64,000 nt of DNA from an uncultured Clostridia bacterium (GCA_947628395.1 CANQZP010000001.1:119-64118), one strand, 5' to 3'; positions 28,448-54,975 are shown, counted from the first letter of the stretch. A program made the numbers and translations. The notes: generated by a model not told the origin, from the letters alone.

Positions 28448-28570
28448 TCAGACAGGGGAACGCAAACGAAAAACAAAAAAGAAACAAGCTTTTTCAGACA
28501 GGGGGACGGAGTTATTTGTCTAAGAATTGAAAATTCTTAGACAAATAACTCCGTCCCCTCTGTCTGAAAT
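28448..28570. repeat. ~76-bp near-perfect palindrome (cagacagggggacggagttatttgtctaagaatt-gaaaa-aattcttagacaaataactccgtcccctctgtctg), preceded by an extra half-site
   Basis: Family with four full copies in the window (28494-28570, 43109-43178, 48846-48920, 54901-54975). Always intergenic, just 3' of a minus-strand gene. Confidence 0.85.
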
Positions 28571-28590
28571 AATTAAATTCCCCTATAATT

Positions 28591-29226
28591 TTATTCAATA
28601 ACAATATTATCTTCATCTAAATAAATAAAAGGTAATTTTATATCAGTATTATCTATTTCTTTCACAACATTTGCAATTCTAACTTGAATACAATCTATAG
28701 AATTTGCTGAAATAATGGCCTTTTTATTACCATTTGCACCAGCATGAGCTAGTCCTCTTAATGTTCCTGTAACAATAATATTTTCTCCAGCAATTACCTC
28801 TGCTCCATAATTCAAATCCCCAAGAACAACAATACTTCCAGTAAATTCTTCTTTTTGACCTGAACGAAGTGAACCTCTTATAAACTTAGTATCTGATGTA
28901 TCTATATCGCTCTCATACGTCTTTTTTATTGCGTGAAGTCCTAAAAGCTCAGAAGTTTCTCCAAAGGTTATTCTAACATCTATTGATTTTGAAATTAATT
29001 TCTTAATTTCATCTTTTTCTTTTTCTTTTAAAACCTTTCCTATAATATGTATAGGCGTTTTTTCTTTATCATAATATTTTTTAAGCCTTGGCATTTTAGA
29101 AGTTAATTCTTCAATAATTTGATTTTGCTCTGCTTCTGCATTAATAGTTATCTTTAATTCTTCTTTTGTAACTGTAATTCTAATACAACTTCTCATTTTC
29201 CCCTCCATTTTATTTTTTACAATCAA
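28591..29226 (-). CDS. minC: Septum site-determining protein MinC
   Basis: C-terminal beta-helix motifs GSLRSGQ..., IVVLGDLNYGAEVIAGENIIVTGTLRGLAHAG. No minD or minE follows. Confidence 0.75.
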   Translation of the reverse strand: MIVKNKMEGKMRSCIRITVTKEELKITINAEAEQNQIIEELTSKMPRLKKYYDKEKTPIHIIGKVLKEKEKDEIKKLISKSIDVRITFGETSELLGLHAIKKTYESDIDTSDTKFIRGSLRSGQKEEFTGSIVVLGDLNYGAEVIAGENIIVTGTLRGLAHAGANGNKKAIISANSIDCIQVRIANVVKEIDNTDIKLPFIYLDEDNIVIE

Positions 29227-29236
29227 ATATATTTTC

Positions 29237-29350
29237 TGTCGGGCGGACTTAGAGGCCCGCCCCTACATTTTTTGCAATGATATATTCTTCTTGTTATTAC
29301 CCTATATTTGTAGGGGCGGGGCTTGTCTCCGCCCTTCTAATCGCCCCTAC
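29237..29350. repeat. Composite A/B palindromic repeat, direct copy of 28296-28440
   Basis: See 28296-28440. Confidence 0.8.
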
Positions 29351-29354
29351 AGAT

Positions 29355-52594: not shown

Positions 52595-52794
52595 CATATC
52601 TAAAGTCCTTTTCTTTCTACAATTTAAATTAATACACAATTATGATATATTAAATTAAAACATTTATCAAGCAATTTTTATTTAAAAGTTATCCATTTTT
52701 TCGCACCTTTTTCTATCTCATAAAACTTCTAATATTTACCCTTGACCATTTTATTTTTTTTATATACAATAAAATTGTATATATTTAAAAGAAT

Positions 52795-53743
52795 GTGAGA
52801 AAAAATATGAAAGAAGAATTTGATTTTTATAGTAGAACCGCTTTAAAATCTTATAATCTAGAACAAACAAAAAGATATCAATTAGCTATGTTAGACAGCC
52901 TAGATGTTTACACTCGTAAACATTGTGAAAATGTTGCAAATATAAGTTGCAGACTTTGCCAATATCTAAATATGGACGAAGGATTTACTATCTATACAAC
53001 AATATGTGCATATCTTCACGATTTAGGGAAAATGTTTATACCACCAAGTATATTACAAAAGACATCTAAATTAACAGACGAAGAATATGAAATAATGAAA
53101 ACACATACTACAATTGGATACAATATGTGTATGAAAGATTTGAAACTAAGACCTTATGCAGCAGGAGCTCTATATCATCACGAAGGATTAAACGGAAGTG
53201 GATACCCTAATCGGACTTACTAAAAAAGATATACCTTATGAAGCACAAATTATTCGTGTTGCTGATGAGTTTGAAGCAATAAGTGCTAAAAGACAATATA
53301 AAACACATATTGGAATTATAGAAACTTTAAACATATTAATTGAAAATTCAGAACCAGTAAAACCTCAAGAAGGTTTAAAAATGATTATAAAAGATGCTAC
53401 TGTAGGAAAAATAGACAAAAAAATCGTAAAAGCTTTATTTAAAGTAATTGCAGATGATACAGAAAATGAAATTGTAGTTAGAAGTGACTACTTAAAGTAT
53501 GTAAAAGACGAAATTAAAAGATTAGAAAATGCACGAAATTATTTTGAAAAATACAACAAAGCAAAAAGAGAAAAAGATAAAGAATATTATAAACAAGGAA
53601 TTCAAATGTTTTTAAAACCAAATGAAACAATAGAAAACTTTCAAACAGTTATCCAAGAATATAAAGATTCTTATGTAGATAGACAAAATACAATAAAAAG
53701 ACTAGAAGGAGAATTAAAACAAATTAAAAAATTGAAAGTATAA
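52795..53743 (+). pseudogene. HD-GYP domain phosphodiesterase, split by one +1 shift (extra C before GGA; CGG at 53212-53214)
   Basis: ORFs 52795-53223 and 53198-53743. HD (LHDLGK). HHEGLNGSGYPN|GLTKKDIPYEAQIIRVADEFEA is a contiguous HD-GYP signature only if the C is removed. Confidence 0.7.
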
Positions 53744-54087
53744 CATAATTGGTGATTATCAATCACCTAATTTTTTTGACATTTGAGATTTAAAAGATAT
53801 TGACTTAAAATTCTTTTAAATCATTAATGGCAAGATTAGTCCATTTTATTTCCATTTTTCAATTTCCTCCAACAATTCATCTGTTGTTAATCCTTTATTT
53901 ATTTGTGAATCTTTAATTCCTTCTTCAATTTTTAATCTTATATATATAGCTTCAATAATATCATCAAAAGTAGCTGTATCTGGAAGAGAATTGGTAACTT
54001 CCATAACTAATTCTTTCATACTATCAACCTCCTCCTTATATTATAATATTTTTTATATGTTTTATCAATATTTTTCTCTATATTCAT

Positions 54088-54801
54088 CTATTTCGCATTA
54101 AAATAATTTTGAATTCCAATATAAATTCCCCAAGCAATCTTATCTTGATATTCATCTGTTTGTAATAATTTCTCCTCCTCAGGATTTGATAAAAATCCAC
54201 ATTCAACTATTGACATAGGTATCTCAACATGATCTACCAAATACTTTCCAGAAATACTTAAAGCAGTTCTTTTATTTTCTTTTTCAATACTTTCATTAAG
54301 TCCAACCTGTAAATTCTCAGCTAACTTTTTAGAATCTTCTGATTTTTTACTATAAAACGTCTGCCACCCAGAATATTGACTTTGAGGAATTTTATTTAAA
54401 TGAACAGAAACTAAAATATCTCCACTACTTTCATTTCCTATCTTAACTCTATTTTTTATATCTGAAACTTTTTTCTCTCTCAAAGTATTTTTATCTAAAT
54501 CATAAATTGCATTTTCATCAGATCTAGTTAAAATAACAGTACTACCACTAGATTCCAATAACTTTTGCACTTTTAAAACAATCTTTAAATTTATTTCATT
54601 TTCAGTAGTCCCATTCGAACTTTCTGCTCCCTCATCAGGACTTCCATGCCCAGCATCTAATATAATAACTTTATTACTAACAGGTGAGGCAACAGTCATT
54701 ACTGTCTCTTTTAATTCACCCATACCTATAGCCACAAAAAAAACAGAAAGAACAATACTAGATAAAATCATCATAATTCTTTTTTTCTCTATAATAAACA
54801 A
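54088..54801 (-). CDS. N-acetylmuramoyl-L-alanine amidase (Amidase_3, CwlD-like)
   Basis: N-terminal TM. ILDAGHG...E, VSVHLN motifs. ~237 aa, the same length as CwlD. Confidence 0.7.
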   Translation of the reverse strand: MFIIEKKRIMMILSSIVLSVFFVAIGMGELKETVMTVASPVSNKVIILDAGHGSPDEGAESSNGTTENEINLKIVLKVQKLLESSGSTVILTRSDENAIYDLDKNTLREKKVSDIKNRVKIGNESSGDILVSVHLNKIPQSQYSGWQTFYSKKSEDSKKLAENLQVGLNESIEKENKRTALSISGKYLVDHVEIPMSIVECGFLSNPEEEKLLQTDEYQDKIAWGIYIGIQNYFNAK

Positions 54802-54900
54802 AAAAATTCACCTCACCATACTTTTTATAAATTATATGATAAGATGAAGAATTTATGCCTAAAAAGGCTTTCACACGGAGAGGCAGAGAAAAATCAAAGT

Positions 54901-54975
54901 TTCAGACAGGGGGACGGAGTTATTTGTCTAAGAATTAAAAATTCTTAGACAAAACTCCGTCCCCTCTGCCTGAAA
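54901..54975. repeat. 76-bp palindrome family, copy 4
   Basis: cagacagggggacggagttatttgtctaagaattaaaaattcttagacaaaactccgtcccctctgcctg. Confidence 0.8.

Follow-up and report, generated by a model that had tools for sequence, protein, structure and literature searches.

The window analyzed here, i.e., a stretch of 64,000 nt from an uncultured gut Clostridia bacterium (GCA_947628395.1, CANQZP010000001.1:119-64118), contains four closely related copies of a long palindrome. These palindromes are probably REPIN-like dimers of a terminal repeat of the TIRYT type, that is, non-autonomous sequences that would owe their spread to a Y1 enzyme whose gene is located at another place in the genome. Most likely, they represent small parasitic DNA of a known kind, and neither transcription terminators nor cut-and-paste miniature inverted-repeat transposable elements (MITEs). 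This reading assigns a puzzling palindrome family to a defined element class with a concrete enzyme partner, and it corrects two tempting annotations, i.e., a MITE derived from a DDE-type insertion sequence (IS) and a terminator; MITEs and terminators had been suggested in an initial annotation of this DNA.

Position, sequence, and fold of the palindromes

BLAST with the whole palindrome retrieved four copies in the window, located at 28490-28572, 48844-48921 (96%), 54900-54975 (95%), and 43109-43178 (90%), and an earlier 34-mer had matched at 28495, 43111, and 54903 with at most three mismatches, where shuffled sequences give 0 expected matches. The four copies reported in the initial annotation are therefore real, and they are all intergenic and lie, as it had stated, just downstream of minus-strand genes (0-131 nt past the stop codons). 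Copy 1 (28490-28572; no strand is assigned to any of the copies) is a dimer whose two convergent units (AGACAGGGGGACGGAGTTATTTGTCT) are separated by a 3-nt loop, and it is located between convergent genes, 18 nt past the stop codon of minC. Copy 2 (43109-43178) is a dimer with a degenerate outer right end, 23 nt past the stop codon of a YbaK-like gene. Copy 3 (48844-48923) is a dimer located in the smc-tatD spacer, 131 nt past smc and 24 nt before the start codon of tatD, and copy 4 (54900-54977) is a dimer that abuts the stop codon of a metallophosphoesterase gene (0 nt).

Each palindrome is a convergent (tail-to-tail) pair of a unit of about 27-30 nt, AGACAnGGGGACGG(N6-8)TGTCT, in which the two units face each other across a spacer of 3-5 nt (unit, loop, inverted unit). 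The palindrome also takes in the outer T-run and A-run (TTTT(T)CAGACAG...CTGTCTGAAAA(A)), and its RNA folds strongly: the minimum free energies range from -44.6 to -65.4 kcal/mol, and comparison with shuffled sequences gives z-scores between -7.5 and -12.3. The stems had been described as uniformly 33 bp long, the loop being their only variable part. In fact, copy 1 has a perfect core of 27 bp and copy 2 one of 22 bp, one bulge is common to all the copies (CAGACAG-GGGGACGG in the left arm, CAGACAGAGGGGACGG in the right arm), and the arms also differ from copy to copy. Copy 3 has lost one base in the left arm and copy 4 two bases in the right arm. Compared with the other copies, copy 2 lacks one base in each arm, at symmetric positions (AAGATT/AATCTT), so that its pairing is kept. 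Since the extra right-arm base is found in all four copies, all of them have the same orientation. The differences between arms are mostly uncompensated, as expected from neutral decay.

The suggestion that these hairpins act as bidirectional terminators did not hold. On both strands a T-run precedes the hairpin and an A-run follows it, i.e., the T-run is on the wrong side, and thus the copies are not terminator-like. No copy has a U-tract, and none of the four was listed in the terminator scan. Promoter-like sites are not enriched, and a search of Rfam yielded nothing at the gathering score, the only models with E-values up to 1 being plant and animal microRNA precursors, well below their thresholds.

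These results also bear on the possibility that the palindromes are structural elements selected by the host, either for an RNA role (3'-end protection, RNase III processing between cistrons, or attenuation) or for a DNA role (binding sites or supercoiling), their spread being secondary or ancient. Such a role would be consistent with the location of all the copies in intergenic DNA at or near stop codons, in one orientation and within co-directional operons, and with the very stable folds and the symmetric change of copy 2. It has also been reported that repetitive extragenic palindromic (REP) sequences lie mostly downstream of open reading frames (ORFs) and are transcribed (Di Nocera, 2013; PMC3733652). 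However, the terminator scan, the mostly uncompensated arm differences, and the lack of an Rfam family argue against it, as does the comparison with two syntenic relatives described below, where the same intergenic positions carry no elements, unrelated genes flanking the copies here. We thus consider host selection an unlikely primary explanation, although a host-selected role is compatible with the REPIN-like reading as a secondary effect.

Association of the unit with Y1 transposase genes

The outer 17-mer of the window palindromes (TTCAGACAKGGGGACGG) was used as a query to scan the JGI metagenomes. It was found in 98 stretches, which is about the chance number by our own estimate, and most of them look like chance matches. 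In 20 of these stretches the 17-mer is followed by the TGTC tail at the spacing found in the window, where we estimate that about 3 would be expected. It is this combination of the 17-mer with a TGTC tail at fixed spacing that defines the unit given above. Full convergent dimers were present in four of these 20 family loci (L135, L138, L152, and L177), the one of L135 reading TTCAGACAGGGGGACGGTTCTCTTGTCTG-loop-CAGACAAGAGAACCGTCCCCCTGTCTG. A Y1_Tnp gene is present in 3 of the 20 family loci and in none of 81 chance loci. Since two of the three loci, L125 and L146, are near-identical (99.6% at the gene), they represent two organisms (L125/L146 and L140).

L125 and L140 encode proteins of 253-260 aa directly beside units, and these genes match the Pfam family PF01797 (Y1_Tnp) with E-values of 6e-13 to 1e-19. 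With the NCBIfam model NF047646 (REP-associated tyrosine transposase), whose cut-off is 80 bits, the L140 gene scored 91.6 bits and the L125 gene 74.8 bits, i.e., just under it. The best solved homologue of these proteins is TnpA(REP) of E. coli (4ER8), with which the HUH motif and the Y...NP motif could be aligned. In L125, and likewise at both genes of L140, the gene lies between units in inverted orientation. A protein search with the Y1 protein yielded more than 7,000 relatives across Bacillota, many of them named RayT or REP-associated tyrosine transposase (RAYT).

Four further loci (L201, L202, L203, and L205) were picked by protein similarity alone, namely from Petroclostridium sp. X23, Geosporobacter ferrireducens, and two Clostridia metagenome-assembled genomes. 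The sequence AGACAnGGGGACGGTTCT..TGTCT is found about 65-75 nt upstream of the ATG in all four, where it overlaps a -35-like TTGAC(A) box, and an inverted unit follows right after the stop codon in three of them, the inverted units of L205 being located about 1.8 kb downstream. Extra solo units and a convergent dimer are also present near these genes. Overall, the unit brackets a RAYT-like HUH/Y1 gene in 6/6 Bacillota loci examined (L125, L140 with its two genes, L201, L202, L203, and L205).

When 16 units from the four protein-chosen loci were aligned, 89% of the cells paired and four pairs had changes on both sides, supporting that the unit itself is a hairpin. The core of this independent consensus, AGACANGGGGACGG, occurs in the window four times exactly and once with one mismatch, and shuffled sequences gave 0 matches. 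Solo units, tandem clusters, and convergent dimers exist in other genomes too, the same forms being found in L105, L125, L153, and L201, and the closely spaced inverted pairs of the other loci are convergent in about 10 cases and divergent in none, with the heads pointing outward. Taking together the gene-flanking units and the convergent dimers, the palindrome corresponds to the gene-flanking arrangement minus the gene, i.e., a gene-less TIRtron.

In the upstream flank of these genes (L201-L203 and L140), the unit runs with its 3' end into a -35-like TTGAC(A/T) box (…TGTCTTGACA…), which is followed after about 17 nt by a -10-like hexamer, so that an enzyme bound to its own flank could repress its own promoter. 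ORF finders translate the tandem unit clusters of L125 (6675-7001, 1315-1617, and 2694-2976) into repetitive peptides (…EPSPCL…, …DRGTVHLS…), which in Clostridia annotations probably appear as spurious "hypothetical proteins".

RAYT-like TIRYT genes have been described as flanked by terminal inverted repeats (TIRs) that are long and share the motif GGGGWSAS, some TIR families being moderately abundant as singles, dimers, and clusters (Di Nocera, 2013; PMC3733652). TIRYT genes correspond to TnpAY1 subclass 2.1, whose members have a C-terminal DnaA_C/HTH-like domain (Quentin, 2018; PMC6006769), and to RAYT Group 1, which is present in Clostridia and whose flanking 16-mers occur about 12 times per replicon (Bertels, 2017; PMC5581495). 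Judged from its sequence and surroundings, the unit of the window fits a REP-like terminal repeat of this large Bacillota family of RAYT-like HUH/Y1 enzymes (TIRYT/"TIRtron", RAYT Group 1, TnpAY1 subclass 2.1). As in the TIRtrons, a Y1 gene whose product measures about 255-263 aa and has a C-terminal tail is bracketed by inverted repeats with a GGGG(A/T)(C/G)A(C/G)-type motif, and the repeats are dispersed in moderate numbers as singles, dimers, and clusters, within a bacterial group from which TIRYTs have been reported. It differs from them in its motif GGGGACGG, in that the unit itself is a hairpin with covarying stem pairs, and in that the cognate gene of the species was not seen in the window. 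No REP-like structures were found beside subclass 2.1 genes by Quentin (2018; PMC6006769), whereas here a unit is present on each side in all six loci, including the more distant downstream units of L205.

The REP/REPIN-RAYT systems of Proteobacteria (TnpA(REP) of E. coli, 4ER8, and the REPINs of Pseudomonas) share with the window elements a short extragenic hairpin located mostly after stop codons, an inverted doublet that folds into one long hairpin and looks like the replicative form, the lack of target-site duplication, and the flanking of a single-copy HUH/Y1 enzyme gene by the repeats. Unlike the repeats of RAYT Groups 2 and 3, the unit starts with (C)AGACA and lacks the canonical 5' GTAG/GT[AG]G foot, the spacer between units is only 3-5 nt, and the enzyme belongs to a different subgroup. 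IS200/IS605 elements and their miniature derivatives (PATEs) also depend on a Y1 HUH enzyme and single-stranded DNA hairpins and leave no target-site duplication, but the ends of IS200/IS605 are two different subterminal hairpins rather than inverted copies of one unit, and elements of this type contain their transposase gene and are multiplied in one piece.

In analogy to TnpA(REP) and IS200/IS605, a unit or dimer would adopt a hairpin fold when its DNA becomes single-stranded at the replication fork, where a Y1 enzyme encoded elsewhere in the genome would recognize, cleave, and rejoin it. Copies would in this way be dispersed to gene-free spots without target-site duplication and would then decay neutrally. 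This mechanism implies that a cognate enzyme exists in the species and mobilizes the repeats, and a Y1_Tnp gene (PF01797/NF047646) would then be expected in its genome, preceded by CAGACAGGGGGACGGAGTTATTTGTCT at a distance of about 70 nt and followed, past its stop codon, by an inverted copy. Since the copies lie inside operons, they should be transcribed, and the RNA hairpin of about 37 bp may incidentally affect the processing or stability of the mRNA.

Several observations weigh against the REPIN-like reading. The metagenome loci were fetched with the 17-mer of the window, and thus only the protein-retrieved loci constitute an unbiased test. The four palindromes and the larger element at 39556-39881, described below, carry GGGGACGG, which matches GGGGWSAS at 7/8 positions, with G for A at position 7. 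A covariance model of the gene-flanking units found only one arm in the window with E<0.01 (0.007, 15 bits), the other arms scoring about 8-9.5 bits with E-values of 1 to 6, i.e., the hairpin of the unit is weak there; the simple search for the core motif proved to be the more informative test. Apart from the 5' half and the TGTCT tail, the window arms do not follow the gene-flanking consensus: their spacer is AGTTATT instead of TTCTnT, and the upper-stem pairing is lost; from this comparison, the 3' half of the arms appears to have drifted toward A+T-rich sequence. A tblastn search with the Y1 proteins gave no match in the 64 kb of the window nor in the loci from relatives (about 1.4 Mb), and therefore the cognate enzyme of the species was not seen. 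Two DDE transposases are located near units, an IS4-like one in L123 (about 40 nt from GGGGACGG units) and a DDE_Tnp_1_6 fragment beside a unit cluster at the end of L125. Insertion polymorphism was not seen among samples of the species, which are all near-identical. Finally, we know of no experimental demonstration that TIRYT enzymes mobilize their TIRs.

It is possible, and here we are considerably more tentative, that the Bacillota subclass 2.1/Group 1 clade, described so far as devoid of REP-like flanks and unassociated with REPINs, is a true REPIN-type system in which a GGGGACGG hairpin brackets essentially every gene, overlaps its -35 box, and seeds species-specific populations of convergent dimers, also in small, low-G+C uncultured gut Clostridia, where the dimers would mark gene-order breakpoints. 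REP/REPIN-like biology has been studied almost exclusively in Proteobacteria, and the results hint that it is common in Bacillota; in this phylum, the hairpins beside the very widespread "REP-associated tyrosine transposase" genes have hardly been described so far. Palindromes of this kind break short-read assemblies, yield spurious small ORFs, and may drive rearrangements in the genomes of gut Clostridia. Three short-read contigs of the same species (L096, L098, and L099) end inside copy 4, 53-65 nt past the stop codon.

Related elements, target sites, and gene order

Within a 27-kb part of the window, the repeat class comprises five dimers (the four palindromes, which form one subfamily, and a fifth one at 43759-43819), one interrupted dimer, and two solo units. 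The interrupted dimer is a larger foldback at 39556-39881 that had been annotated as a 314-bp MITE. The element is real, but it is 326 bp long including two 48-nt arms, which are 85% complementary. The left arm (39556-39603, plus strand) represents another subfamily (GGACGGCAATGCCTATTTAAGTTAAGAAAA) and the right arm (39834-39881, minus strand; TTCAGACATGGGGACGGCAATGTCT...) abuts the stop codon of pcrA. The likeness of this element to the palindromes had been thought to be limited to the outer 17 bp, whereas in the alignment its arms are related to the palindrome arm over their full length. The interior (39604-39833), previously taken for about 230 bp of cargo, is itself a foldback with an A+T-rich inverted repeat (39622-39648 and 39787-39813) that encloses, at about 39683-39709, a GTAG-type hairpin (GTAGGGGCGATTATCAATCGCCC) which is a copy of another repeat. 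The whole thus looks like a dimer with nested insertions.

The solo TIR proposed at 35908 was recovered by BLAST (35908-35934) and is a unit of the 326-bp-type subfamily (35908-35950, plus strand; CCAGACAGGAAAGGACGGCAATGCCTA...TCTGAAAA), and a second solo end, or a degenerate unit head, is located at 28447-28463 (plus strand; TTCAGACAGGGGAACGC), 30 nt to the left of copy 1. The dimer at 43759-43819 (no strand assigned) is a perfect palindrome of a third subfamily, 61 bp long with 30-nt arms and a 1-nt loop, that abuts the stop codon of a SLOG-domain gene, and each of its arms carries GGGGACAC, an exact match to GGGGWSAS.

Long TIRs, small size, solo ends, and an interrupted larger member are also what would be expected from classical MITEs, i.e., deletion derivatives of DDE-type IS whose ends of 35-48 bp are recognized as double-stranded DNA and whose insertion leaves target-site duplications. 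The presence of the two DDE transposases beside units in L123 and L125 fits this alternative as well, and the window elements resemble DDE-type MITEs such as the Correia elements, RUP, and the Coxiella MITEs (PMC5896051) in being small, non-coding, intergenic, and foldable, with terminal inverted repeats. However, DDE-type MITEs have target-site duplications and a matching parental IS, and neither was found here. No target-site duplication of fixed length flanks the copies, which show only inconsistent A/T strings of 3-6 nt at varying offsets; the A+T-rich flanks and the lack of an exact empty site make this a weak test. No DDE IS with these ends was present in plasmids, phages, GTDB representative genomes, or JGI metagenomes, and the plasmid and phage BLAST gave chance matches of 20-38 nt only. 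The inner-arm 20-mer ACGGAGTTATTTGTCTAAGA had 0 matches in GTDB representative genomes, JGI metagenomes, and IMG/VR, suggesting that the inner sequence is specific to the species. The IS of L123 was considered as a parent element and rejected, since its own inverted ends, read from the sequence, are different (AAGTTTCCCCATTTTT). The search for an IS with matching TIRs, which the initial annotation had proposed as a check, led instead through the outer end to Y1 genes, in 6/6 loci and with a fixed geometry. We also reason that a 3-nt spacer between 37-bp ends would be awkward for a double-stranded paired-end complex. All this makes a classical MITE origin quite improbable. What stands of the earlier proposal is a dispersed family of inverted repeats with minimal, interrupted, and solo members whose enzyme is not encoded in the window; the likely type of enzyme has to be revised, the one found in the traced loci being Y1 and not DDE.

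Other samples of the species are at least 99.3% identical over the compared loci, covered there by contigs of about 1-5 kb, and are too alike to be informative on insertion polymorphism. Copies 2, 3, and 4 are identical in same-species contigs from at least 10 other samples, copy 3 having the same sequence in two other samples. The corresponding places of two syntenic relatives, L083 and L207 (TatD identity 76-77%), whose gene order is the same, contain none of the elements; for instance, the smc-tatD spacer of L207, where the window has copy 3, is only 44 nt long. Both carry GGGGAC-hairpin dimers of their own at other places, and own dimers are found in L002, L006, L207, and L208, with the same loop motif, GGGGAC(G/A)(G/C), and different stems. 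This is the pattern expected of lineage-specific repeat populations that would be tied to a conserved recognition motif. The GlyRS-anchored loci of 80 genomes (L001-L080) showed no synteny with the window and no palindrome, and they are thus useless as empty sites.

Copies 2 and 4 and the 326-bp element sit exactly at the borders of blocks that are absent or replaced in L083 and L207. The block bordered by copy 4 (54859-57500) contains a T-box, glyQS, and the metallophosphoesterase gene; the one bordered by copy 2 (43000-46785) contains tyrS, the PRTase-CE and SLOG genes, and the YbaK-like gene; and the one bordered by the 326-bp element (38155-39881) contains an AAA_14/DUF4143 ATPase gene. 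This coincidence with differences in gene order is what would be expected if the palindromes were scars made at the junctions of gene blocks, or sites serving at them for a site-specific recombinase or in the manner of attC. However, copy 3 lies in the conserved smc-tatD junction, and at other loci Y1 genes have the same unit on their flanks. Among the inspected ORFs of the window, for which the Pfam scan was partial, no gene for an integrase or recombinase was recognized. An attC/integron reading was rejected on context, because the intervening "cassettes" would be housekeeping genes spanning several kb. Moreover, dispersed repeats that promote rearrangement, or junctions that tolerate insertions, could explain the association with junctions equally well, and a recombination origin appears highly improbable.

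Host segment and other repeats of the window

The window is a chromosomal segment with a G+C content of 28.5% and a housekeeping gene content (minC, a split PBP2 gene, mreC, a split mreB, radC, pcrA, tyrS, prfA, tatD, smc, and glyQS). Its genes are nearly all on the minus strand, and the GC skew is strongly negative on the plus strand across the whole window. In Firmicutes the leading strand is usually G-rich, and thus the genes of the window run with replication. The closest GlyRS among GTDB species representatives shares 86% identity, and many samples from a single ENA study contain the same species, with a coverage of about 3x.

Four genes are split by frameshifts, i.e., mreB (32845-33868), the PBP2 gene (29355-31447), a ZIP gene (42272-43019), and an HD-domain gene (52795-53743). 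In mreB there is an extra C at about 33352 (CTTCGGTGG). This frameshift is real and not an assembly error, since the same pieces of 184 and 175 aa were called in two independent sample assemblies. The fact that both mreB and the PBP2 gene are broken suggests that the cell-elongation machinery is decaying.

Between tyrS and the YbaK-like gene, the region 43820-45275 encodes a PRTase-CE protein followed by a SLOG cluster-4 protein, and it ends in the perfect palindrome 43759-43819. The PRTase-CE/SLOG pairing has been described among nucleotide-centered conflict or defense systems. A T-box leader is located upstream of glyQS (57152-57325, minus strand) with a score of 84.5 bits, just under the Rfam gathering score of 93, and a similar leader probably precedes tyrS (45276-45619), as judged from the sequence. 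Inside pcrA (40331-40432, minus strand) there is a sub-threshold Rfam match to RF03531 (50 bits, with a gathering score of 65), a Clostridioides difficile small RNA annotated within a helicase gene, so that the match probably reflects coding-sequence conservation. Four successive very large minus-strand ORFs of 1707, 1663, 3392, and 1651 aa with internal repeats (1206-26857), presumably encoding surface proteins, occupy 40% of the window.

The window also contains several G+C-rich families of GTAG-headed hairpin repeats, such as GTAGGGGCGATTATCAATCGCCC and GTAGGGGCGGGGCTTGTCTCCGCCC, that look like classical GTAG-tagged REPs. They are located at 2-25, 1072-1110, 11520-11547/11609-11636, 27126-27227, 27523-27620, 28289-28440, 29240-29354, 38170-38187, 39683-39709, 47996-48040, and 61469-61495. 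One of them is an inverted pair with a 61-nt spacer and is REPIN-like, two-hairpin modules recur, and some copies score as terminators, e.g., the one at 47995-48023 after tatD. The window contains 15 occurrences of the sequence GTAGGGGY, which is frequent in the relative L083 as well.

Beside copy 3 there is a small foldback (48938-49042) with A+T-rich inverted ends of 21 nt and a G+C-rich core of 63 nt. L083 contains, at about 9810-9945, an unrelated-looking element of the same build in the same intergenic spacer, and a stretch of the smc-tatD spacer of L208 (9766-9818) is similar to part of the 326-bp element's interior, with 79% identity over 57 nt (E-value 2e-4). These observations suggest a further repeat family.

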